IMG/VR virus record: IMGVR_UViG_3300025598_000020
Source: a virus
Reading direction: 5' to 3' (one strand)
DNA: 64,000 bases
In this document: piece after piece, positions 2,730 to 38,120 of the stretch
Layout of the letters: each line of letters starts with the position of its first letter
Position numbering within the stretch: position 1 is the stretch's first letter
Program-made: the position numbers and the translations under genes
The notes under the pieces: generated by a model
Databases searched by the model: none
Seen by the model: the letters and a program-made list of their open reading frames with translations, nothing else
Told to the model about the DNA's origin: nothing

Positions 2730-3356
2730 TTATAGACCAGTGAATGCTTGACCCCAGCTAGTATTAGCTGAGTTTGTATTTGCAGCAGTTGGGCTAGCCA
2801 AGGCAACTAATGTTTCTTTGATATAACGCACAGAACCATCATTGTTGGTTTTCTTTTGAATGTGAACCCAACCAGGAACAACATCACCTAAGGCAACAGT
2901 ATTGTTTGCCAAACGTGTTGGTGTAACTAAAATTGTATCTGCACCATATGTTTTGGTCATTGTTTTGTTTGTGTTATAAACAATACCTTTATCAAACTCA
3001 ACACCAAAACCAGCACTTACAGTATTAAATAAAGCTGGTGTTAGTGTAACTGTGTTGCCACTTATAGAAGCAACAGTTGTGTTCGAAGCAAAGAAACCGG
3101 GAATACCATTGCCTGCTTGGCCACCTTTGTTATCACCAAATCCGTTGGCCCAGAAATAAACGTATTGACCGGCAGTAATACCGATGTTTGCTACGTTATT
3201 TGCGCCGCCATCCAAATAATTGATACTGATGATGGTATTTCCTGAAGTGTTACCTGCAAAAACAGTTGCTTGAACATTTTCTCTGGTGACTCTTACAGTA
3301 TCCCATTTTGGTTTGCCTTGGTTACTATTTGCGTCTGTATTTTTCCACGATGACAT
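2730..3356 (-). CDS. Hypothetical virion structural protein
   Basis: Asn/Thr/Gly-rich beta-type composition, PGWV...ETLVA C-terminal motif, TAAATA and AAGGAG upstream. Confidence 0.65.
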   Translation of the reverse strand: MSSWKNTDANSNQGKPKWDTVRVTRENVQATVFAGNTSGNTIISINYLDGGANNVANIGITAGQYVYFWANGFGDNKGGQAGNGIPGFFASNTTVASISGNTVTLTPALFNTVSAGFGVEFDKGIVYNTNKTMTKTYGADTILVTPTRLANNTVALGDVVPGWVHIQKKTNNDGSVRYIKETLVALASPTAANTNSANTSWGQAFTGL

Positions 3357-27911: not shown

Positions 27912-30533
27912 ATGAAAAGGTTAGTCCTTTTTGTTTTGTTGATGGTGGCAAGCATAGTCTTTGCCCAAGATGCGGCCACTATAAATGCAACCAGTGGTGC
28001 ACTTAGTGTAACAAGTTCTGGGAATGTGCTCAACTTGGGTGGTGGTTTGCCATGGAACAATACTGTTACTGGTGCAGCAGGTGGTTATAGTGGCGGTTAC
28101 ACACCTGCTTATAATCCTAGTACAGGTAATATTATTTTTGGATATACCACACAAACTGTTAGTCAAACAGTAGCAATCAACCAAGCATTAGCGAGTGCAG
28201 GTACAGGCATTCAACTGTCTGGATATAGTTATTCATGGGGTATCAATAATGAATTATCCAACGGTGGAGGTAATAGAGGTACGCTTTCAGGTAATGTTTC
28301 GTTGATTGGAACAAGTGGTAATACGCTTGAAAGTTACAACTATAATTACAGTCAAGTAAACACACAAACCGGAACTTTTCAACAATTTTCTGGCACTCAA
28401 ATGTTTTCCAATCAATACGATTTGAGCCAAGCTAGTAAAATAATTGTTAGTTTTACGGGTAAAGACCAAAACTTTTGGGCAGGTTATTATGGTCCAAGAG
28501 TTCATGTGAACTCATTTGATTTATTGTACTCAGTAAACCCATGTACTGCAAATCCTGCATATAGTCCTAGTTGTTCTGGATTTAGTAGCCTTCTTACAAG
28601 TGCTAATTTAGTTCCTAATCCTACTGCGGTTGCTACACCAAATAATCCAGTAAGTAATTCTTTTGCTATTTCAACTGCATTGTCTAATAGTGGTTCCGGT
28701 TTATCACTGTATGGTATTAACTATGGATTTACATACAACTTACCCACAACTGCATCAACAGGTCTTGTTAGTGTGGCAATAGAAGGTGGTAGCACAAGAG
28801 GTATTGGAGGTACAACATACCAATTAAATGGTCCATCTCAAGGTGCACAGATTGCCAGTTATCAATTGTTAACACCATCAGCAGTTAATACAAATTCATT
28901 AGGCAATTTTAACTTTAGCGCAAGTGTACAAGGCACAGGTTCATCTATTTACAATATGAATGCGAGTTTGATTGTTATGCCTGATGCATGTACAACAAAT
29001 CCATTAAGTAGTACAAGTTGCACTGGTTATGCTGCAGCATATGCTAAACAATCAACTCAAAATGCAATTAATGCGGCAACTGCGGCCGCAACAAATAATA
29101 CATCAACAACAGTTGCAGCCGCATCAGTTGCACCTGCACCACCTCCAGCGGCTACACCTCCTCCACCGCCACCTAATTCAGGTTCAAATGTTGTGAATGA
29201 CACTAATCCAGTTACAACTTCTGCAACAAGTGGTGCACCAATTGGTTCTGTAAGTATTGCAGCCAATGTTGTTTCAGCACCAGCGCCTCCTGCTGCGGCA
29301 AGTCCTCCGCCACCAGCATCAAACAACTCACCAAACTCAAATGGTTCTAATGCACAAAATTCACCTGCATCAGGTGGAGGTAATGCTGGTCCAGCACCGG
29401 CAGCAGGTCCTGCACCAGCAGGAGGACCAGTAACTGCATCAGCAGGTCCATCGGGTGGTTCAAATAAAGAATCTACATCAGGTACCAGTATAGGTTTATC
29501 AGTTGTTGCAAAAAATCAACAACAAAACCAAGCAGTAGCAATGCAAGTTGCTGCAGCTGCAACAGCACAAGCACAACAAGCCGGTACACAAGCACAACAA
29601 ACTGCACTTAGTGTTGCAGCTTCCGCAACAGCAAACTCGGTAACAGCTGCACAATCAGCAGTGAAAAGTGGACCTAGTTCTCCTTCTGGTTCAAATTCAA
29701 CAACAAGTAACTCAAACAATTCCAGTAGTCAAGGTTTATCAGCTAACTCAACAGCAATTGCTGCAGCAGGTCCTACTACAACAACATCTAGTCAAAAACA
29801 AGACCAGTCTGGTTCATCAAGTTCAACTACACAAACAATAACAACACAAGCATCCACTATTTCTAATCAAGTAATATCATCAACAACAGGTACAACAGTT
29901 GCAATGATATCACCATCCCAAACACAAACTGTTACTAATACTGCACCACCCGTCAATAATACACCACAAAATACACAATCTGCTGCAGCAATCCAACAAA
30001 ATGTTACAAACAATACAGCGGTTCAACAATATACTACAACAAATCAATTGTATAGTTTATTGCCGCCTGCACAACCAACAGTTCAACCATATACAGCACC
30101 TACTACAACTTTTGATGTAGCTCTAACAACACCTCCACCTACATATTATCAACCACAGCAAAGTGTGACACAAAGCACAAGTACCGTAGCACTATTAACA
30201 CCTACACAAGTATTGGACAGATTTGGTCCAATAAATCAAGTCTTGAATGATAAAGTTGTTGTACCATCAACGAATACAACAGTAAACACGGGACCAGTAG
30301 TTAATAAGAATGCAGAAAACAACGAAGCTGCTGGTGGCGTTGATATTAACAAAATGGCCAAAACGCCAACAGGATACGGAAGTTATTTAACTCTTGCATT
30401 AAAAGATGCATCATTTTATGCACCTAAAGAAGTGTATAGAAATCAAAGAACTGTTGATAATGTAAGAGCATTCAGGTCATTGGCTAACGACAACAAACAC
30501 CGTGAAATGGTGGATTTACAGTACGTAAAATAA
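27912..30533 (+). CDS. Large secreted protein with globular N-terminal region and Ser/Thr/Ala/Pro/Gln-rich stalk
   Basis: Signal peptide MKRLVLFVLLMVASIVFA; two CxxNPxxSxSCxG motifs; long mucin-like region. Confidence 0.85.
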   Translation: MKRLVLFVLLMVASIVFAQDAATINATSGALSVTSSGNVLNLGGGLPWNNTVTGAAGGYSGGYTPAYNPSTGNIIFGYTTQTVSQTVAINQALASAGTGIQLSGYSYSWGINNELSNGGGNRGTLSGNVSLIGTSGNTLESYNYNYSQVNTQTGTFQQFSGTQMFSNQYDLSQASKIIVSFTGKDQNFWAGYYGPRVHVNSFDLLYSVNPCTANPAYSPSCSGFSSLLTSANLVPNPTAVATPNNPVSNSFAISTALSNSGSGLSLYGINYGFTYNLPTTASTGLVSVAIEGGSTRGIGGTTYQLNGPSQGAQIASYQLLTPSAVNTNSLGNFNFSASVQGTGSSIYNMNASLIVMPDACTTNPLSSTSCTGYAAAYAKQSTQNAINAATAAATNNTSTTVAAASVAPAPPPAATPPPPPPNSGSNVVNDTNPVTTSATSGAPIGSVSIAANVVSAPAPPAAASPPPPASNNSPNSNGSNAQNSPASGGGNAGPAPAAGPAPAGGPVTASAGPSGGSNKESTSGTSIGLSVVAKNQQQNQAVAMQVAAAATAQAQQAGTQAQQTALSVAASATANSVTAAQSAVKSGPSSPSGSNSTTSNSNNSSSQGLSANSTAIAAAGPTTTTSSQKQDQSGSSSSTTQTITTQASTISNQVISSTTGTTVAMISPSQTQTVTNTAPPVNNTPQNTQSAAAIQQNVTNNTAVQQYTTTNQLYSLLPPAQPTVQPYTAPTTTFDVALTTPPPTYYQPQQSVTQSTSTVALLTPTQVLDRFGPINQVLNDKVVVPSTNTTVNTGPVVNKNAENNEAAGGVDINKMAKTPTGYGSYLTLALKDASFYAPKEVYRNQRTVDNVRAFRSLANDNKHREMVDLQYVK

Positions 30534-30543
30534 GGAGACTAAA

Positions 30544-31164
30544 ATGTCAGAAGAAATTAAAAACGTTAACGCAAAAATTGATGAGGCAGAAGCTGCAGTC
30601 AAAAAGTATGCAAGTAAAGACACCGTTATCAGCATCGGTGGTTATGAATTCACACCAGCAAAACTGATGGTTGCATTCACACTTGCATCTTCATTGCTTG
30701 GTGGTTTGTATGGTTGCTTTGAAGTCTATAAAGACTACATTGGCATGAAGAAAAAGATTGCTGAATATACTGCACCAGACCTATCTGGTTTTGATAAACG
30801 ATTAGCAGTTATTGAAGAAAACAGCCAAAAGTCTAGTGACTATACCCGTGATATCAAAGTTGATTTGAAGAACGATATTCGCCGTAATGAATCAGTTACT
30901 GAACAAGTTGAACGTAGTGTTAAACAGGCTCAACGTGAAACAGAACAAGAAATGCGTCAAGCACGTAAAGATGTACATGAAGATTTGGAAAAAGCACGTA
31001 CAGAAGTGAATGCCATCCGTAAAGAAATGGCTGATGCTCGTAGAGAAATCTCTACAGACTTGAATACAACCAAAAAAGAAATTAATAAAGAAGTGGAAAC
31101 ACTAAAGAGAGAAGTTGACGCCAAGATTCAAAAGGCCGTGGACAATCCTTTGGCCAACAAGTAA
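30544..31164 (+). CDS. Membrane-anchored coiled-coil protein
   Basis: One TM segment (LMVAFTLASSLLGGLYGCF) then heptad-rich helix; AAGGAG RBS. Confidence 0.8.
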   Translation: MSEEIKNVNAKIDEAEAAVKKYASKDTVISIGGYEFTPAKLMVAFTLASSLLGGLYGCFEVYKDYIGMKKKIAEYTAPDLSGFDKRLAVIEENSQKSSDYTRDIKVDLKNDIRRNESVTEQVERSVKQAQRETEQEMRQARKDVHEDLEKARTEVNAIRKEMADARREISTDLNTTKKEINKEVETLKREVDAKIQKAVDNPLANK

Positions 31165-31165
31165 T

Positions 31166-31384
31166 TTATACTACTGTTGCAGATAAACTGGCAGGAACAT
31201 CAATAGAGACTGTTCCTACAGGATGACGTTCATGTTTGTGTTCGCCATTCTCATCAAAGATTCTGCAATGTGCATCTGGATGTTTTTCAATAAAAGCGAT
31301 TGCGGCTTCTAGCGAATCAATGAAATGGTTTTTACTTTCAAAAATACCATTAATCACTCTTTGAATTTTTACCATGTGTGCCAT
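31166..31384 (-). CDS. Small hypothetical protein with C-terminal VSIDVPASL motif
   Basis: AAGGA RBS; 72 aa. Confidence 0.7.
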   Translation of the reverse strand: MAHMVKIQRVINGIFESKNHFIDSLEAAIAFIEKHPDAHCRIFDENGEHKHERHPVGTVSIDVPASLSATVV

Positions 31385-31400
31385 ATACTATCCTTTAAAT

Positions 31401-31474
31401 TGGAGCGGGATAGCGGAATCGAACCGCTGACTAAAACTTGGAAGGATTTCGTTTTACCATTAAACTAATCCCGC
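31401..31474 (-). tRNA. tRNA-Gly(TCC)
   Basis: Cloverleaf, U73, encoded CCA. Confidence 0.9.
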
Positions 31475-31479
31475 ATTAT

Positions 31480-31555
31480 TGGTTGCGTGGGGATGGATTC
31501 GCACCATCGACTTCCGGCTTATGAGGCCGGCACTCTACTACTGAGTTACCCCGCA
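31480..31555 (-). tRNA. tRNA-Met/Ile2(CAT), atypical
   Basis: CCGGC-CTCATAA-GCCGG; T-loop TGCGAAT; bulged A in acceptor stem. Confidence 0.8.
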
Positions 31556-31559
31556 ATAC

Positions 31560-31567
31560 TATTTATA
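31560..31567 (-). promoter_or_regulatory. Late promoter TATAAATA directly upstream of tRNA(CAT)
   Basis: Exact consensus. Confidence 0.65.
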
Positions 31568-31644
31568 TGGTGCGGCTGGTGGGACTCGAACCCACAAAAC
31601 TCGGATTTTAAGTCCGATACGTATACCAATTCCATCACAACCGC
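31568..31644 (-). tRNA. tRNA-Leu(TAA), short variable loop
   Basis: TCGGA-CTTAAAA-TCCGA; 77 nt; CCA. Confidence 0.85.
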
Positions 31645-31668
31645 ATAATTAAGTGTATTCTTATATAT

Positions 31669-31744
31669 TGGTGCAACCCACAGGAATCGAACCTGTTTCC
31701 ATGGTTCTTCAGACCACCGCTATGACCACATCAGCTAGAGTTGC
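31669..31744 (-). tRNA. tRNA-Phe(GAA)
   Basis: Cloverleaf, CCA. Confidence 0.9.
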
Positions 31745-31746
31745 AT

Positions 31747-31820
31747 TGGTGCTCTCACCAGGAAACGAGCCTGGTTCTCATCCTTACCAAGGATGTGTAA
31801 TACCATTATACTATGAGAGC
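31747..31820 (-). tRNA. tRNA-Thr(GGT)
   Basis: CATCC-TTGGTAA-GGATG; variant T-loop CTCGTTT. Confidence 0.85.
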
Positions 31821-31868
31821 AGGTGACACACAATTTGTCCTTTTGTACGCCGTGTGTCGAGGCGAATT

Positions 31869-31944
31869 TGGTACCTGGTGTTGGACTCGAACCAACATCG
31901 CTCTCCTTGTAAGGGAGACGTATCACCTCTCTACGCAACCAGGC
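31869..31944 (-). tRNA. tRNA-Val(TAC)
   Basis: Cloverleaf, CCA. Confidence 0.9.
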
Positions 31945-31949
31945 AAATT

Positions 31950-32024
31950 TGGGGTGATTAATGGGTATCGATCCCATACTACGACTTTCACAGAGTCGGG
32001 TGCTTCCACTACACTATAACCACC
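31950..32024 (-). tRNA. tRNA-His(GTG)
   Basis: G-1:C73 pair, CCA. Confidence 0.9.
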
Positions 32025-32025
32025 A

Positions 32026-32143
32026 TAGAATAGGTGAGGACTTATTATCCTCGTGACGTCCGTACCCGGCTGTTCCTTTCCGGTTCACTGGTAAATTCCA
32101 GCTATACTTGGTGCGGCCTTTCGGTCCGTGCCGGACTATTCTA
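32026..32143 (-). ncRNA. Candidate structured ncRNA
   Basis: Closing stem TAGAATAG/CTATTCTA with internal hairpins including a GAAA loop; GC-rich relative to the genome. Confidence 0.55.
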
Positions 32144-32149
32144 AAGAAC

Positions 32150-32223
32150 TGGAGCGGGATACGAGAATCGAACTCGTGTCCGAACCTTGGCAAGGTCCCG
32201 TTCTACCATTTAACTAATCCCGC
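32150..32223 (-). tRNA. tRNA-Gly(GCC)
   Basis: Cloverleaf, U73, CCA. Confidence 0.92.
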
Positions 32224-32230
32224 TTTAATC

Positions 32231-32722
32231 TTACAATGCTTCTGCCATTTCTTGTTCTGCCAGAATACGTTTCAAACGGTCTGCACAGAATGATGCTGCT
32301 GGAGCATCTGGTTTAACCATTGGTGTCATGTTACAAGTGCCTTTTATATATCCAATTGCTTGTTGGACAACACAGGATGAACCATAAATGTCTTCTTTGT
32401 TCAAGTCTAAGTGAACTTCAACATGATGGTCTTCCAGAACTTCCTGGAGACTTTGGAACAATTCTGAAACCTTATATACTTCTGTCATCAAACGCATAGC
32501 AGGTTTAGATTTTTTATGGTCATAATCTAACTCACGTTCAACATAACCAAAGATTTTACAGCCATGACGGCCATCAATATGAACTACGACAGCCAAAGCA
32601 TAATCTGCATACCATACACCATCAACACGAACTCTTTCTGAATCTGCACCAAGATAAACTTTAGTATCTGGTCCTTGTTTTTTTAAGAATTCTTTTACCG
32701 CTTGAATGTCGAAATTTTTCAT
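32231..32722 (-). CDS. RNase H-like YkuK/DUF458 family protein
   Basis: YLGADS, LMTEV, EVHLD, KP.A.AAS..AD motifs. Confidence 0.8.
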   Translation of the reverse strand: MKNFDIQAVKEFLKKQGPDTKVYLGADSERVRVDGVWYADYALAVVVHIDGRHGCKIFGYVERELDYDHKKSKPAMRLMTEVYKVSELFQSLQEVLEDHHVEVHLDLNKEDIYGSSCVVQQAIGYIKGTCNMTPMVKPDAPAASFCADRLKRILAEQEMAEAL

Positions 32723-32736
32723 ATCAATCCTTAAAT

Positions 32737-32810
32737 TGGCATCCCAGGAAGGACTCGAACCCTCACAAACGATTTTGGAGACCGTTGTGCTGCCATTACA
32801 CTACTGAGAT
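32737..32810 (-). tRNA. tRNA-Trp(CCA)
   Basis: Cloverleaf, G73, CCA. Confidence 0.9.
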
Positions 32811-32811
32811 A

Positions 32812-33015
32812 TTATTTCTTTACTAATGGATTCTCCACATCATCATAGCGGAGTCCCAACTCATCCGAAATTCGAGCCAACTCATCAAGAGCCTTCTCTT
32901 GTTTCGATTTCTTATCCTTACCAAATATTGCATCCCAATTACTAGCGAACTTTTCTTGAGATACACTATATGGTCTAGGACTTGAACCTTTGCCACCGTC
33001 ACTCATATTTAACAC
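32812..33015 (-). CDS. Small hypothetical protein
   Basis: GKGSSPRP...NWDAIF motif; AAGGAG RBS. Confidence 0.65.
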   Translation of the reverse strand: MLNMSDGGKGSSPRPYSVSQEKFASNWDAIFGKDKKSKQEKALDELARISDELGLRYDDVENPLVKK

Positions 33016-33025
33016 TCCTTATAAT

Positions 33026-33101
33026 TGGCTCCCCTTCGTGGGTTCGAACCACGCTTCACGGATTAACAGTCCGCCGCCTACACCTAGTTTGCTTAAGGGG
33101 A
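33026..33101 (-). tRNA. tRNA-Asn(GTT)
   Basis: Cloverleaf, CCA. Confidence 0.9.
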
Positions 33102-33108
33102 ATAAAAA

Positions 33109-33184
33109 TGGTCTCCGTAGAGGGATTTGAACCCCCACTACCTGCTCCCAAAGCAGGGGCGCTACCAGGTTACGCTATACGGAG
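33109..33184 (-). tRNA. tRNA-Pro(TGG)
   Basis: Cloverleaf, CCA. Confidence 0.92.
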
Positions 33185-33189
33185 AAAAA

Positions 33190-33255
33190 TGGAGCAGTCA
33201 TTACGATTCCCACGTAAATGTTAGGTGGACCCTAACACGGTTACTATCCGACTGC
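33190..33255 (-). ncRNA. Non-canonical 66-nt tRNA-like RNA (Gly-like acceptor end)
   Basis: Acceptor GCAGTCG/TGACTGC + TCCA; stems TGTTAGG/CCTAACA and TTACG/CGTAA; reduced D-arm; no TTC loop. Confidence 0.7.
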
Positions 33256-33262
33256 AAAAAGA

Positions 33263-33336
33263 TGGTGCCCCATGAGAGAATCGAACTCCCGTACCCGGAT
33301 TACAAAACCGGTGTAATGCCATTATACTAATAGGGC
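33263..33336 (-). tRNA. tRNA-Thr(TGT)
   Basis: Cloverleaf, CCA. Confidence 0.9.
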
Positions 33337-33353
33337 GTATACTTATATATCTA

Positions 33354-33427
33354 TGGTGGACCGTGAGAGAATCGAACTCTCAATCTCGGCTTGCAAAGCC
33401 GATGTTATCCCATTTAACTAACAGCCC
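33354..33427 (-). tRNA. tRNA-Ala(TGC)
   Basis: G3:U70 pair, CCA. Confidence 0.93.
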
Positions 33428-33434
33428 ATAAAAT

Positions 33435-33519
33435 TGGTGGAGACGACTGGAGTCGAACCAGTAGTGCCAGAGGCGGCGGATTTACAGTCCACTGGGGTTA
33501 CCAATTTTCCTACATCTCC
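33435..33519 (-). tRNA. tRNA-Tyr(GTA)
   Basis: Long variable arm, CCA. Confidence 0.92.
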
Positions 33520-33521
33520 AA

Positions 33522-33711
33522 AATTAGGATAAGCTACTTGTTTCCACACAAGCCCTTAATTGAGCGGTTACTCTGTCCATTCCTTTTATTCTACAGTCTG
33601 TGTGCAGAGGAATACTGCCTATCAGATTCTGGATTTCTCCGCTAACGGTCTTCTGCCACCGGATCTCTATCGTTAATCAAACGCCACTTTTACGAAAGTA
33701 GTAACGGGATT
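33522..33711 (-). ncRNA. Candidate ~190-nt ncRNA between tRNA-Ile and tRNA-Tyr
   Basis: Long non-tRNA spacer, no ORF in track, several short stems. Confidence 0.4.
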
Positions 33712-33785
33712 TGGTACCCAGTAGAGGTATCGATCCTCTGATTAACGCTTATCAAGCGTTTGTTATACCATTTAACTAACCGGGT
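33712..33785 (-). tRNA. tRNA-Ile(GAT)
   Basis: Cloverleaf, CCA. Confidence 0.9.
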
Positions 33786-33790
33786 AAACT

Positions 33791-33865
33791 TGGCGGTCTA
33801 TAGGGGTAACGATCCCCTTCTTTTGGCGTGACAAGCCAACGTGCGTCCATGAACACTTACAGACC
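33791..33865 (-). tRNA. tRNA-Asp(GTC)
   Basis: Cloverleaf, G73, CCA. Confidence 0.9.
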
Positions 33866-33870
33866 TAAAT

Positions 33871-33953
33871 TGGTGCCCCAACCGAGACTCGAACTCGGAT
33901 GCCGAAGCAGTGGCTTCTAAGACCACCGTGTCTACCAATTCCACCATCGGGGC
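33871..33953 (-). tRNA. tRNA-Leu(TAG)
   Basis: Long variable arm, CCA. Confidence 0.93.
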
Positions 33954-33963
33954 AAAAAACTTT

Positions 33964-34038
33964 TGGTACGGGTGGAGAATTTCGAAATCTCGACTCTCTG
34001 GTTAAAAGCCAGATACTCTGCCTCTGAGTTACACCCGC
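33964..34038 (-). tRNA. tRNA-Lys(TTT)
   Basis: Cloverleaf, CCA. Confidence 0.9.
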
Positions 34039-34042
34039 ATAC

Positions 34043-34170
34043 TACCATTTGTTTTGCTGACGCACTATTTGCTAAGTCTCAACGGAATTGGTGGCCACAC
34101 TACCGTTTATCGACAGAGTTACTCAAGGTTGACGTTTACCTCATGGCTTACATCAGCAAAACAAATGGTA
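34043..34170 (-). ncRNA. Candidate ncRNA closed by an 18-bp perfect stem
   Basis: TACCATTTGTTTTGCTGA (34043-34060) is the reverse complement of 34153-34170. Confidence 0.6.
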
Positions 34171-34240
34171 TTCCGTACGAGGATCGAACTCGCCTGCGTA
34201 AGTTGAAAGCCTACTGACCTCACCAGAAGTCCAACGGAAT
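34166..34240 (-). tRNA. tRNA-Glu(TTC)
   Basis: Cloverleaf, CCA. Confidence 0.88.
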
Positions 34241-34258
34241 AAAAATACACTTAACTTT

Positions 34259-34345
34259 TTAAAGAACAATTGATTGATTTCTCAATTCATGGATGAATTA
34301 TAACACAACCAACAACTTTGTCAAACACTGTTGTAAAAATACAAC
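34259..34345 (-). promoter_or_regulatory. Sigma70-type promoter with upstream GTTG-N8-CAAC palindrome and downstream boxA
   Basis: TTGACA (34319-24), 16 nt, TGn-TATAAT (34297-302); TGTTCTTTAA at 34259-68. Confidence 0.8.
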
Positions 34346-34350
34346 AAACT

Positions 34351-34426
34351 TGGAGTACGTGACAGGAATCGAACCTGCATAAAACGGATTTGCAATCCGC
34401 ACCCTAACCGTTCAGGTCACACGTAC
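34351..34426 (-). tRNA. tRNA-Cys(GCA)
   Basis: U73, CCA. Confidence 0.9.
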
Positions 34427-34433
34427 ATGAATA

Positions 34434-34482
34434 TGGCCCCGTTTTTTTGTCATTCTCATTGAGGTGTACGGGAGTTCCTCAA
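34434..34482 (-). ncRNA. Candidate H-type pseudoknot RNA ending in CCA
   Basis: TTGAGG/CCTCAA stem; loop TCCCGT pairs with ACGGGG after an A7 tract. Confidence 0.5.
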
Positions 34483-34500
34483 ATCAGTTGCAACACAACT

Positions 34501-34590
34501 TGGTGGAGAGTCAGGGAGTCGAACCCTGTGACCGTATTACTACGGTCTACGGATTAGCAATCCGCTGCATTACCATCCTGCCCACTCTCC
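34501..34590 (-). tRNA. tRNA-Ser(GCT)
   Basis: Long variable arm, CCA. Confidence 0.92.
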
Positions 34591-34592
34591 AT

Positions 34593-34660
34593 ATCTCAGT
34601 TTGGATTCGAACCTTGTTCTAGTATTGTCTATCTGCGCTTCCCACAGTGCTGACCGAGAT
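34593..34660 (-). pseudogene. Degenerate tRNA-like element
   Basis: Terminal stem ATCTCGGT/ACTGAGAT and GGTTCGAATCC T-loop; no anticodon stem, no CCA. Confidence 0.55.
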
Positions 34661-34663
34661 GAC

Positions 34664-34753
34664 TGGCGGAAACGGTGAGATTCGAACTCACGGACCCTTT
34701 CGGATCGTCTGTTTTCAAGACAGGTGCAATCAACCGGACTCTGCCACGTTTCC
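34664..34753 (-). tRNA. tRNA-Ser(TGA)
   Basis: Long variable arm, G73, CCA. Confidence 0.92.
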
Positions 34754-34759
34754 AATAAA

Positions 34760-34856
34760 CCATATAGAAATACACTACCTTCACCCACTTACGATTGGCG
34801 TAACCAGCGGAAGTTAACAACCTGCTCATGTGTTGCTATAATGTATTTTTATATGG
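34760..34856 (-). ncRNA. Candidate ncRNA closed by an ~18-bp stem
   Basis: CCATATAAAAATACATTA / TAGTGTATTTCTATATGG. Confidence 0.55.
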
Positions 34857-34929
34857 CAGGGGAGATGAGATTCGAACTCATGATACTGATTTCAAAGACC
34901 AGTGCCTTAGGCCTCTAGGCGACACCCCA
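34854..34929 (-). tRNA. tRNA-Gln(TTG)
   Basis: Cloverleaf with acceptor-stem mismatches, G73, CCA. Confidence 0.85.
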
Positions 34930-35015
34930 ACATACTCAAATACACTAAAAAATATCTAATGCGTTTGAGTATGGCCACTCCTTGCGGAATGGCCAAAAAA
35001 GAATACACTTAATTT

Positions 35016-35083
35016 TTAAAGAACAAGGTTGAATTCTAACAGACACGATGGTCTTTGTCAACCGTGTGTTGTTTTTACGCAAC
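35016..35083 (-). promoter_or_regulatory. Sigma70-type promoter with GTTG-N8-CAAC palindrome and boxA, head of tRNA array
   Basis: TTGACA (35056-61), 17 nt, TAGAAT (35033-38); TGTTCTTTAA at 35016-25. Confidence 0.8.
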
Positions 35084-35090
35084 ACCAAAT

Positions 35091-35122
35091 AAAAAAACCT
35101 CAGAACTTTCGTTGTGAGGTTT
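35091..35122 (-). terminator. Intrinsic terminator (candidate attenuator)
   Basis: AAACCTCACAAC-GAAA-GTTCTGAGG followed by T7. Confidence 0.85.
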
Positions 35123-35149
35123 AGTGAAATTTAATTAGATTTTATTCTG

Positions 35150-35254
35150 TTATGTTCCACTAACCCCGTTTACATGCGCCCATGGTTGATTATCGCTACC
35201 AATAAATGGTGTGCGATACTCACATGTTAACAATGATTTGGACGTGAAAAACAA
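35150..35254 (-). CDS. Putative attenuator leader peptide, 34 aa, containing all 20 amino acids
   Basis: AAGGAG + 6 nt + TTG; MFFTSKSLLTCEYRTPFIGSDNQPWAHVNGVSGT*; 3' end complementary to terminator 5' arm. Confidence 0.75.
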   Translation of the reverse strand: MFFTSKSLLTCEYRTPFIGSDNQPWAHVNGVSGT

Positions 35255-35288
35255 AATAAACTCCTTAATATACTATTATATATGCAAC

Positions 35289-35807
35289 TTAATTTTTAGA
35301 AATTGGTTTTTTCCAATTAATCTTTCTTTTCTTCAATGGTTCTTCTGGATTTCTAAAGCCAGAAAATACTTCCCATAATCTTTCTTTATGAACAAACTTA
35401 GTTAATAGACCACTTTCCATACCGTGTGCTTCTATTTCCCAAGGATGGTCCCAATAATCCATATTATCGGAATCAATCTTTAAATCATGCCATTTACTTA
35501 ATGTTTCATTTGTATGACCATAAGCAAATTGCTTAATATGCACCATTTCATGTGCAATTGTTTCTAATATATTTGGTACTCCAATATCTGGATTAACTTC
35601 TATTAGAAACTCTCTAGGCATATTCCTAGAATTATAACCTTCAACATATGCATAACCAAATACTTGCATGTCTTTTTTGAATTTGATTACGATTGAAGTA
35701 TAATCCTGCATCTGCTTAGTTAATAAACTATCAGCATAAAACTTAGCGGCCCTATGAACATAGGGGGTAAAGTTTTTATCGGGACTTCCAACAATCTTAA
35801 TAGACAT
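35289..35807 (-). CDS. Zinc metallopeptidase-like protein (HEXXH)
   Basis: AHEMVH and PWEIEA motifs. Confidence 0.8.
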   Translation of the reverse strand: MSIKIVGSPDKNFTPYVHRAAKFYADSLLTKQMQDYTSIVIKFKKDMQVFGYAYVEGYNSRNMPREFLIEVNPDIGVPNILETIAHEMVHIKQFAYGHTNETLSKWHDLKIDSDNMDYWDHPWEIEAHGMESGLLTKFVHKERLWEVFSGFRNPEEPLKKRKINWKKPISKN

Positions 35808-35836
35808 AGATGCTCCTTAAAGAAGCCATTATACAC

Positions 35837-36316
35837 CTATTTAGAGTACTTGTCAACCTCCACACCACACTGTTGTAAAAATACAACACCTTGGTCATTT
35901 CGGTAATCTTCTTTATAGAAAACCTTACGAATTCCTGCGGTAAATATCTGTTTTGCACAGTCAATACATGGTGCATGTGTCAGAAACATTGTGGAACCAT
36001 CACCTGATTCACTGGATTTAGCCAGTTTAGCAATGGCATTTGCCTCTGCATGGATGACTTCTGGTTTGGTTGTTAACTTATAGTTTATCCACTGATTTGC
36101 TTGTTTTGGAAGCAATTGTTCACTATAATCACCATCATCACAATAGTGTTTAGTTTCACATTCATTAGTCCAACCTGGCGGCATGCCATTATAACCAATA
36201 GAAATGATTCTATCATCTTTTACAATGATAGAACCAACTTTCAATCGGACGGCAGAACTTAGTCCGGCTGTCCGACTTGCAATGTCCATGAAATAATCAA
36301 TAAACTTCTGCTTCAT
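35837..36316 (-). CDS. cd: dCMP deaminase
   Basis: HAEANA and PCIDC zinc motifs, GYNG. Confidence 0.93.
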   Translation of the reverse strand: MKQKFIDYFMDIASRTAGLSSAVRLKVGSIIVKDDRIISIGYNGMPPGWTNECETKHYCDDGDYSEQLLPKQANQWINYKLTTKPEVIHAEANAIAKLAKSSESGDGSTMFLTHAPCIDCAKQIFTAGIRKVFYKEDYRNDQGVVFLQQCGVEVDKYSK

Positions 36317-36322
36317 AATATA

Positions 36323-36397
36323 TGGTGCGACCAGTAGGATTCGAACCTACCCCGTAAGAATTATGAGTTCTCGGCACTACCTCTATGCTATAGTCGC
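36323..36397 (-). tRNA. tRNA-Met/Ile2(CAT)
   Basis: Cloverleaf, CCA; no initiator features. Confidence 0.88.
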
Positions 36398-36404
36398 TTA
36401 ATTT

Positions 36405-36536
36405 TTATTCCATCAAAACATAATCTTCTTTACTCACACCACATTCGGGGCAAGTAACAGAATCAGGTAAACTTAGATAATCTGCTTCAGACAAGGTGTG
36501 TCCACAAACGACACAAACATAAACACGTTCACCCAT
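36405..36536 (-). CDS. Rubredoxin-like protein (43 aa)
   Basis: Hand translation MGERVYVCVVCGHTLSEADYLSLPDSVTCPECGVSKEDYVLME; two CxxCG motifs; GGAGG RBS. Confidence 0.85.
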   Translation of the reverse strand: MGERVYVCVVCGHTLSEADYLSLPDSVTCPECGVSKEDYVLME

Positions 36537-36537
36537 T

Positions 36538-36987
36538 TTAGATACCTCCTAATACTTTAATATATGCTTCTGCATGGCGTTTTTCAACTTTAGCCAATGC
36601 GGCAAAACGTTTTTCTGCCTTAGCCAAGATAGCGGCAAATTGTGCGGCATGTTCTTTAGACTCAGCAATCTGCTCTTGGATTTCTTTCTGTGCTTCGGTC
36701 TTACCCTCTGCAACTGCAATGGCTTCAAACTGAGGATACATTGTAGTAAACTCATATGTTTCACCATCAATAGCAAGTTGTAAGCATTCCTTAGTGGTTC
36801 GCTTACCGACCAACAATTCCAAATGACCCCATGCATGTTTGATTTCTTGATCGGCAGTTTCTTCAAAATGTTTTGCAACATCTTCAAAGCCTTCTGCACG
36901 AGCCAACTTGGCAAAGTAACGATATTTAATATGTGCAATTGACTCACCGGCCAATGCACTTTCTAGGTTTTTCAAAGTAACTGACAT
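36538..36987 (-). CDS. Rubrerythrin-family (ferritin-like di-iron) protein
   Basis: NL..A.AGES, EIKHA, GETYE..TMYP, EKRHA. Confidence 0.92.
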   Translation of the reverse strand: MSVTLKNLESALAGESIAHIKYRYFAKLARAEGFEDVAKHFEETADQEIKHAWGHLELLVGKRTTKECLQLAIDGETYEFTTMYPQFEAIAVAEGKTEAQKEIQEQIAESKEHAAQFAAILAKAEKRFAALAKVEKRHAEAYIKVLGGI

Positions 36988-37003
36988 TATAATTCCTTTA
37001 ATT

Positions 37004-37078
37004 TGGTCCGGCGTAGAGGAATCGAACCTCTATTAATAGCTTAGAAGGCTACTGTTCTATCCGTTGAACTAACGCCAG
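37004..37078 (-). tRNA. tRNA-Arg(TCT)
   Basis: Cloverleaf, CCA. Confidence 0.92.
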
Positions 37079-37084
37079 AAGATT

Positions 37085-37369
37085 TTACTTACTGTAATCC
37101 ACGACATTTACAAGATTCATCTTTTCTTGTGCAGACCAATTCTTCAAATAATCATTATCTATGTCAAACAAGTCCAGATATTCAATCTTAGAAAGTTCAC
37201 GACTTGAACTAATAATTTCATCCAGATGTTGTTGAGAAAACTCTTTGAGTTCTTCACCACCAGTGGTATGCATGGTTACTTCATCCAAGGCATGACCTTC
37301 TTCTTTACATTCCACGACATAACGCATACGAAACATTGAAATGGTTTCAACAAGATATAATTTAGACAT
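37085..37369 (-). CDS. Hypothetical protein
   Basis: 94 aa, LYLVETISMFRMRYVVE, EFSQQHL. Confidence 0.7.
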   Translation of the reverse strand: MSKLYLVETISMFRMRYVVECKEEGHALDEVTMHTTGGEELKEFSQQHLDEIISSSRELSKIEYLDLFDIDNDYLKNWSAQEKMNLVNVVDYSK

Positions 37370-37565
37370 TTCTCACCTTCTCCAAGGAGTCTTTACGAAC
37401 ATAATATAATTGTTTTGTACGGTTATCCGATGGATCAAATCTTGTAACAGGTAGAAACTCCACACCATCCACAAAATTAGAATCCCAAGACGAATAAGTC
37501 CAATAGAACTCCGTAGGGTTCAATCGGCTACGCATTTTGATTGGATTGTTTTCAACTTTTTTCAT
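37362..37565 (-). CDS. Hypothetical protein (start reset to MKKVENN)
   Basis: Start lies just downstream of a sigma70-type promoter. Confidence 0.6.
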   Translation of the reverse strand: MKKVENNPIKMRSRLNPTEFYWTYSSWDSNFVDGVEFLPVTRFDPSDNRTKQLYYVRKDSLEKVRNV

Positions 37566-37575
37566 GATGTTGAGA

Positions 37576-37604
37576 AGTATATCACAAGAAGGGGACTTTG
37601 GCAA
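37576..37604 (-). promoter_or_regulatory. Sigma70-type promoter overlapping a hairpin
   Basis: TTGCCA, 17 nt, TATACT. Confidence 0.6.
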
Positions 37605-37679
37605 GCCCCCTTGTTCACTTAGCGGAACTTTTCTGGATAATTCAGGCGTTCCCATTCCTCATCGGTAACAGGCCACCAA

Positions 37680-38120
37680 TTATTCATCTTTAGATTTGAT
37701 ACCAATTTTCTTGATAGCATCCTGTGTTTTGACGATATTTTCCAACCAAACTTTTAACATACCGTTGGCTAATTCCGCATCTTTGATTTCAATCTTATCA
37801 TTGATTGTAAAGACACGTTCAAAAGCACGGTTTGCAATTCCCTTGTATAGGAAATGTTCGTCATCTGCATCATCTTTTGCAAGACCCTTGATGACAAGTT
37901 TGTTGCCGTCCATTGTGATTTCAATATCAGACTTAGCAAAACCAGCAACTGCCATTTCAATGACGTACTTGTTTTCTTTTACTTGTTTGATATTGTATGG
38001 GGGATAACCCATTGATTTGGCTGTATGCTCTGTTGCTCTGCGTAGAGCATCCATAGTTTCTTCAAAGCCAATGAATTGACCGAACAGGTCTTTGCCGAAG
38101 ACATCTTTTAGATATGTCAT
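37680..38120 (-). CDS. Small heat-shock protein (Hsp20/IbpA-like)
   Basis: YPPYNI, MAVAGF, YKGIANRAFER, NGML. Confidence 0.95.
   Translation of the reverse strand: MTYLKDVFGKDLFGQFIGFEETMDALRRATEHTAKSMGYPPYNIKQVKENKYVIEMAVAGFAKSDIEITMDGNKLVIKGLAKDDADDEHFLYKGIANRAFERVFTINDKIEIKDAELANGMLKVWLENIVKTQDAIKKIGIKSKDE

Follow-up and report, generated by a model that had tools for sequence, protein, structure and literature searches.

A conserved leader ORF and terminator-antiterminator pairing at the head of phage tRNA gene arrays: a putative leader-peptide attenuator of tRNA transcription

The closest described counterparts of the element analyzed here are the leader-peptide attenuators of the enterobacterial amino-acid operons, namely trpL, hisL, leuL and pheL and above all the multivalent thrL, ilvGMEDA and ilvBN versions. 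Close as well is the attenuator of E. coli pheST, with its pheM leader, which senses one amino acid and controls a synthetase. The T-boxes bind uncharged tRNA directly and do not need translation. Why phages carry tRNA genes at all is an open question, with the proposals including compensation for codon usage, host tRNA turnover and escape from tRNA-cleaving defences. T4-type phages are, moreover, said to carry PeSLs, reportedly described by Arbiol, Comeau and Krisch in 2010 as mobile cassettes combining a terminator stem-loop with an early promoter.

Here we describe a locus in a 64,000-nucleotide stretch of viral DNA (the window, by which the whole of this stretch is meant throughout), in which a short ORF, an alternative RNA pairing and an intrinsic terminator precede an array of tRNA genes. 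We regard it as probable that this is a leader-peptide transcription attenuator heading the array, with read-through raised by slow decoding, an interpretation drawn from sequence, for which there are no experimental data; that the leader is translated, which way the switch works and to what signal it responds are inferences. A full-text literature search, conducted in a limited collection, found no leader-peptide attenuator before phage tRNA genes. A T-box riboswitch was considered and rejected, given that a permissive cmscan of positions 30500-38000 recovered the tRNAs and matches far below gathering scores, none of them over the leader-terminator region. Like a T-box, the locus appears to offer a terminator/antiterminator choice that reports tRNA status; unlike a T-box, it has a conserved ORF as its central component. 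Like a PeSL, it has, as a conserved block, a terminator hairpin with a sigma70 early-type promoter no more than 30 nt behind it; unlike the PeSLs, which have reportedly been described without a translated leader or antiterminator, the window terminator belongs to what appears to be a conserved switch.

The source phage is an uncultured T4-like myovirus from a lake. Its nearest cultured phages are the cyanomyoviruses, with DNA polymerases only about 51% identical to its own, and a blastn search for related loci among cultured phages found no relatives. All the window elements that were checked sit on the minus strand, and are listed here in their 5' to 3' order along it:

35828..35856, minus strand: perfect sigma70 promoter (12 of 12 hexamer matches) ahead of the 172-aa gene
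35289..35807, minus strand: gene for a 172-aa protein of unknown function (phrog_10499), the anchor for fetching related loci
35274..35285, minus strand: conserved box of the TATATAAT type, the -10 of the leader's own sigma70 promoter in many relatives
35261..35266, minus strand: Shine-Dalgarno sequence (SD) AAGGAG, 6 nt 5' of the TTG start
35150..35254, minus strand: leader ORF of 34 codons plus stop (TTG start at 35254, stop at 35152-35150)
35191..35218, minus strand: hairpin P1, within the ORF and midway along the long leaders, with conservation at the RNA level
35155..35167, minus strand: predicted strand A of the antiterminator, comprising codons 30-33 and the first base of codon 34 and ending 2 nt before the stop
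35116..35129, minus strand: predicted strand B of the antiterminator, its last bases being the first bases of the terminator 5' arm
35091..35119, minus strand: intrinsic terminator, a G+C stem-loop (35119-35098) followed by seven U (U-tract 35097-35091)
35067..35084, minus strand: small conserved palindrome between the terminator and the array promoter
35033..35061, minus strand: near-consensus sigma70 promoter of the array, TTGACA-17-TAGAAT with TG, 30 nt past the terminator
35013..35025, minus strand: boxA-like TGTTCTTTAAAAA, past the array promoter
31401..34929, minus strand: 23 tRNA genes, tRNA-Gln first, the presumed regulated target
34297..34324, minus strand: second sigma70 promoter, confirmed

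The unit comprising the SD, the TTG start and the leader ORF lies 35 nt past the stop of the 172-aa gene. Most of what the initial annotation had read from the window was borne out by our analysis. The SD, start codon and 34-codon ORF are as it described them, with coordinates and peptide all correct. The set of 19 non-Met amino acids that it claimed by codon 28 is completed by Val at residue 28, the last new kind, with all 20 of the 20 amino acids present in the peptide. Its pairing of the last codons with the segment ahead of the terminator was recovered as an A:B helix of 13 pairs with one bulged A (-15.1 kcal/mol, RNAduplex), and the mutual exclusion that it inferred follows from the 5 nt that strand B shares with the terminator 5' arm. 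The array does consist of 23 tRNA genes for 19 amino acids, without Arg (tRNAs for Met and Arg(UCU) lie upstream), and both sigma70 promoters that it placed downstream of the terminator were confirmed. One proposal failed, namely that the TATATAAT box might be a late-promoter variant: the box occurs just once in 64 kb, which rules it out as a general late promoter, and in relatives it serves as a sigma70 -10. In the window it has no -35 to match it, and a good promoter directly 5' of the leader is absent from window-type loci in general; the likely source of transcripts reaching the leader in this phage is the promoter at 35828..35856. Phages DLP_6 and Cr30 have homologues of the 172-aa gene that do not adjoin tRNAs. 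Hairpin P1 may act as a pause or timing hairpin, although this is an inference.

Neither the composition of the window leader nor its duplex is compelling when taken alone. A random 34-mer drawn from the phage's own amino-acid usage contains all 20 amino acids with P ~8e-4, and natural 34-residue windows of phage proteins do so with P ~4e-4; the six frames of the window contain 237 ORFs of 30-40 aa, of which only the leader ORF has at least 19 different residues. Because 237 ORFs were tested, the 20-amino-acid content of the window leader is by itself only marginally unusual. Likewise, 3% of shuffled partners equal the energy of the window A:B, which is among the weakest of the family, and the terminator stem is modest (-8.3 kcal/mol). 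Hence, the case rests on comparison with relatives, in which the retention of ORF, pairing and coverage, as judged from their sequences, lifts the coverage above chance.

The 172-aa protein and DNA patterns served as anchors for fetching several hundred related loci from viral contigs of freshwater origin; most hits to one of the patterns were chance matches, and only those with the complete ORF/terminator/tRNA layout were retained. Between the ORF and the array promoter, sequence identity is 73-79%, also where that of the flanking protein has fallen to about 50%. Frame 0 is open in all 38 distinct long leaders (30-44 codons), and each of the other frames is closed in 37 of these 38. Two types of start are seen. 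In the first, an ATG lies 5-6 nt past the -10 of a TTGACA/TTGCCA-17-TATAAT promoter without an SD, pointing to a leaderless mRNA; in the second, a GGAG SD precedes a TTG or GTG start. These patterns indicate that the leader ORF is conserved as a coding sequence, its translation itself being inferred. Several short-leader loci, among them L140 (at position 3013) and L237, show a further configuration: a TATAAT-like box contains the stop codon of the 172-aa gene, and because this stop is only about 8 nt before the SD-less ATG, the leader at such loci may be translated by termination-reinitiation rather than from a leaderless mRNA.

The terminator, comprising a stem-loop and U-tract, is present in 40 of 41 aligned variants, with the sequence of the 41st being incomplete. 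An A:B helix was predicted in all 40 variants by per-sequence RNAduplex, with energies of -14.7 to -24.6 kcal/mol, and its geometry is constrained in every one of the 40: strand A ends between -2 and +4 nt from the stop codon, strand B overlaps the terminator 5' arm by a constant 4-6 nt, and the terminator follows the stop codon at 26-37 nt. When each strand A was paired with its own as against foreign strands B, the mean energies were -19.6 versus -15.8 kcal/mol, and 12 of 31 strands A have no partner better than their own B. In a covariance-model alignment 84.8% of cells are paired, versus 43-56% in slid controls; double changes occur at 5 of the 13 pairs of A:B (19 cells), and the covariation score of 0.20 versus 0.13 was reached by none of 500 shuffles. 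An alignment of this kind is fitted to the model, which makes the pairing counts lean towards structure; the unfitted per-sequence duplexes nevertheless agree with them. RNAalifold on the MAFFT alignment was uninformative on account of misaligned strands, and the other two approaches were used in its place. Several divergent members (L074, L092 versus L082, L094, L017, L123, L143 and L212) have fully re-matched helices. Of the features that the initial annotation proposed to look for in related phages, the ORF and the covarying alternative pairing are kept, and near-full amino-acid coverage is kept in most of the long leaders.

The folding energies bear on how the choice between the two structures might be made. 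In the absence of the terminator 3' arm, the full A:B helix is the minimum free energy (MFE) fold in all variants; once the 3' arm is included, about half of the variants, the window among them, favour the terminator together with the distal half of A:B. It follows from these predicted folds that the choice must be kinetic, as in the trp leader. An anti-antiterminator formed by the N-terminal codons with strand A appears in many MFE folds, yet was rejected as a conserved feature, given that own partners are scarcely better than foreign ones (-13.9 versus -13.3) and shuffled sequences do no worse.

The core peptide of the main family is near-invariant, and this conservation is largely a by-product of conservation of the RNA, because in L143 and L160 the 3' arm of P1 is read in a different frame, giving other residues; the arms of P1 also co-vary in distant members. 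In L143 (3219-3260, compared with window positions 35218-35171 on the minus strand) the residues after the P1 5' arm form almost an anagram of those of the main family, with the same ten amino-acid kinds in a changed order. The near-anagram results from the change of reading frame over the P1 3' arm, and may be a coincidence or reflect selection for keeping the amino-acid set.

The element heads a tRNA array in every case. At long-leader loci with enough sequence, the terminator is followed 28-46 nt on by a sigma70 promoter, then by tRNA-Gln and the remainder of the array, with up to 18 tRNAs within the fetched stretch. In L209, whose long leader includes all 20 amino acids and whose record has 25 tRNAs, only a near-consensus boxA (TGCTCTTTGACAA, L209:3338-3352) intervenes between the terminator and the array, at a place equivalent to that of the boxA-like motif of the window; L144 and L160 are similar, but with a degenerate promoter-like stretch, and a boxA-like motif is also found at L160:4868-4882. 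The presence of such motifs before the first tRNA suggests rrn-style processive antitermination across the array. Directly 5' of the -35 of the array promoters there is a TGTTG..CAACA palindrome (35067-35084 and 34330-34345 in the window) with loops that vary among relatives, which may be a protein-binding site or a second hairpin.

A distinct subfamily with leaders of just 21-25 codons (L029/L135, L041/L134, L139, L140, L146, L147, L167, L212, L220, L266, L272, L317, L336, L339 and L340) has the same promoter box, a leaderless ATG, a strand A made up of the last four codons and the stop, a matching B and the terminator. In the 13 short-leader types, the L308/L167 type apart, the first tRNA lies 5-16 nt past the U-tract with no promoter between, and because there is no room for one, these tRNA genes should be reachable by read-through only, as should those of L209. 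The exceptional type has a tRNA-His-like gene, uncalled by aragorn, between the terminator and the first called tRNA: in L167 (3140-3230) and L308, which are of the same contig, the gap from terminator to tRNA-Trp is 87-93 nt and contains a tRNA-His-like anticodon stem-loop, CTGTGAA, and the homologous position in L220 is occupied by a called tRNA-His(GTG). These arrangements support, at the level of sequence comparison, a linkage to tRNA genes that goes beyond synteny. At many loci (e.g. L023:3556-3625, L052:3684-3757 and L212:3058-3129) we also observed an RNA-like stretch of about 70-75 nt immediately after a TTGACA-17-TA[CT]A[AG]T promoter. This stretch, of which there are two sequence types, starts with GCGGT and ends with CACCGCTCCA, an acceptor-like stem followed by CCA; aragorn does not call it, and it may represent an unusual tRNA or tRNA-like RNA.

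The amino-acid content of the leaders can be compared with the tRNA sets that they precede. The long leaders stand before arrays of 23-27 tRNAs, and of 35 distinct long peptides 20 contain all 20 amino acids and a further 11 contain 19. Near-complete coverage extends to divergent long leaders in which most positions differ, with 20 kinds among 36 residues in L074, 20 among 38 in L209, 19 among 33 in both L143 and L160, and 19 among 32 in L017; the low values are those of L020 (18 kinds) and L016 (only 15). For the window the codon-to-tRNA match has no discriminating power, because its 25 tRNAs read 84-95% of all codons in its genes anyway.

When the initiator and the last four residues (fixed by strand A) are left out of the count, the 13 distinct short leaders have 132 residues matched by their own arrays, versus 106.3 +/- 5.9 with arrays permuted (P = 2e-5, uncorrected for ancestry). 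Shared ancestry inflates such statistics, and we count roughly five independent agreeing changes. In the complete 161.8-kb genome of L146, the sole tRNAs are Met, Trp, Tyr, Thr, Gly, Asn and Met, and 11 of the 19 scored residues of its leader are amino acids of its own tRNAs, versus 27% expected. The 40.5-kb contig of L212 has only tRNAs for Leu, Pro, Thr and Met; its leader contains six Leu and two Pro, and it alone lacks Trp or Tyr. A stretch S-P-A in the leader goes with arrays that start with tRNA-Ala and include tRNA-Pro, Y-H-T-H goes with arrays that start with tRNA-His, and an extra Cys codon accompanies the sole array with tRNA-Cys. All eight amino acids of the L340 array (Ser, Trp, Glu, Tyr, Thr, Gly, Asn and Met) occur in its leader, from which Pro, Ala and His are absent. 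In general, each amino acid of an array has a codon in the short leader, except Glu (8 of 11 arrays) and one Asp; in the other direction, L134 has Pro and Ala codons without such tRNAs, and three leaders have Ser codons without tRNA-Ser. Subject to the uncorrected ancestry, these data support the view that short-leader composition follows the phage's own tRNA set. Judged by comparison of their sequences, then, the ORF, the A:B pairing, its overlap with the terminator, the place before arrays and, in the short-leader relatives, the match of content to tRNA set are all features of the family.

These comparative features fit the trp/his-type attenuator that the initial annotation had proposed, on account of the ORF, the pairing, the tRNA linkage and the tracking of array content by the short leaders. 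The proposed sequence of events would begin with transcripts from upstream that carry the leader, initiated at the promoter of the 172-aa gene in the window and at the leader's own sigma70 promoter in relatives. If translation were smooth, a ribosome at the stop codon would cover strand A, leaving B free, upon which the terminator would fold and transcription would end. If instead the ribosome lagged, stalled upstream or never loaded, strand A would capture the emerging B, the terminator would be blocked and the polymerase would enter the tRNA genes; a ribosome held at least 8 codons before the stop would leave A free for B before the terminator 3' arm was made. Because every amino acid is represented in the leader of the window, read-through should rise when almost any of its codons is decoded slowly, and in small-array relatives the leader would sample mainly the amino acids of their own tRNAs. 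This would constitute a feedback in which plentiful sampled tRNAs result in a stop, and shortage of any results in transcription into the tRNA genes. The response of read-through to stalling is, like the signal, the leader's translation and the direction of the switch, an inference. Given the lack of support for an anti-antiterminator, read-through is also to be expected on a transcript that is not translated, unlike in trp, and the switch would thus report the timely arrival of a ribosome. The strong sigma70 promoter behind the window terminator implies that the attenuator only adds to transcription of the array. In the window and its closest relatives, this internal promoter with its boxA-like leader would provide attenuator-independent expression, the switch modulating the part that comes from upstream. 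Accordingly, the caveat that the attenuator may gate only late or upstream transcription stands with respect to an upstream contribution, given the array's own promoter, and falls with respect to the late-promoter box. With these qualifications, the window phage and many of its relatives probably send extra transcription into their tRNA genes when decoding is slow.

Some of the same observations could be accommodated by other explanations. The switch might be real and yet read only the presence of a ribosome behind the polymerase, as set by ribosome supply, host shut-off or global translation, with codon identity being irrelevant. Without a supported anti-antiterminator, missing translation alone would give read-through; the geometry of A, stop and B suits any cause of ribosome delay, and the uninformative codon matching of the window offers no objection. 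This explanation does not, however, account for leader content that shifts with the tRNA set among close relatives (His, Ala plus Pro, Cys, Leu/Pro), or for near-complete coverage retained in divergent long leaders of differing peptide sequence, and we consider it unlikely. We regard as somewhat less plausible still that the leader ORF encodes a small functional protein and has a terminator of its own, the peptide acting in trans and A:B merely shaping the mRNA 3' end, its stability or its translation. The strictly conserved frame, the near-invariant core peptide of the main family and the Cys residues in the C-terminal part of several members could be read in this way, but the conserved core coincides with RNA hairpin P1, whose 3' arm encodes other residues in another frame in L143 and L160, and the short family lacks the core and yet keeps A:B, the terminator and the tRNA linkage. 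A peptide acting in trans also gives no role to the constant B/terminator overlap, and the leaders have no protein-family match: comparison of the leader peptides with PHROGs and Pfam returned nothing, and an exhaustive phmmer search with the leaders found two family members and two repeat proteins. The latter were not accepted as homologues, as their scores are sums over repeats. One such resemblance is of the leader core to a Kazal-type repeat motif, Y-x-P-x-C-G-S-D-x-x-T-Y, which we judge to be due to chance amplified by four repeats. Kazal-type domains are about 50 aa long with six conserved Cys; a domain of this type was rejected here on the grounds that the score is summed over four repeats of a short motif, the leader has one Cys and there is no Pfam match.

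The high conservation of the main-family core in both peptide and nucleotides could also be taken to indicate an arrest peptide like TnaC or SpeFL, a particular nascent sequence on which the ribosome halts when one small molecule or factor is sensed. Across the subfamilies it is nevertheless the RNA switch that is conserved rather than the peptide sequence, and the arrays are tracked by composition, not sequence, leaving this as a very improbable explanation. We give equally little credence to the A:B helix being a double-stranded RNase target that parts the upstream mRNA from the tRNA precursor, with the ORF being incidental. Precursors of tRNAs need processing, and some members have a longer helix, of about 20 pairs interrupted by internal loops, but most have just 11-14 pairs, the ORF is kept in all 38 variants, and the overlap with the terminator arm and the fixed stop position would remain unexplained.

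Within the preferred interpretation of a leader-peptide attenuator, a more specific proposal is possible, namely that of a homeostatic decoding sensor whose leader codons form an inventory of the tRNAs that the phage itself carries, extending to as many as all 20 amino acids, such that any tRNA shortfall switches on the replacement pool. We offer this only tentatively, as an idea that we think may well not hold. The shortfall might be caused by codon usage that does not match that of the host, by host shut-off or by anticodon nucleases of the host that cleave tRNAs; a role in countering the last of these is pure conjecture. If the proposal were true, tRNA genes would have their first known attenuator, and decoding speed its first truly general sensor. 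A built-in sensor coupling tRNA transcription to decoding speed would show that phages gauge the tRNA pool and respond to it. The element, of about 170 nt, is self-contained and has natural variants with different amino-acid sets; for these reasons it is directly testable in reporters and cell-free systems, and it is potentially useful as a synthetic sensor of translation stress.

A comparison with the enterobacterial attenuators brings out both the shared logic and the peculiarities of the phage element. In common with them it has a short leader, here with translation inferred, and an antiterminator that shares bases with the terminator 5' arm; the ribosome's position would pick the hairpin, the leader codons of the short-leader relatives match the product, and the choice appears to be kinetic, with the terminator being the more stable structure in about half of the variants, the window among them. 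Unlike them, it targets tRNA genes rather than biosynthetic enzymes, and whereas their leaders repeat one to three amino acids, the phage leader samples the whole set of the array, up to 20. The phage ORF also runs through the antiterminator strand instead of ending before it, many members would be expressed from leaderless mRNAs, and there is no conserved anti-antiterminator of the 1:2 type seen in trp. The pheST system is likewise a leader-peptide attenuator placed on the decoding machinery rather than biosynthesis and answering to charged tRNA; the phage element differs from it in that the output would be the tRNAs themselves and that many amino acids are sampled. If borne out, it would carry leader-peptide attenuation beyond amino-acid biosynthesis and into the decoding machinery itself.
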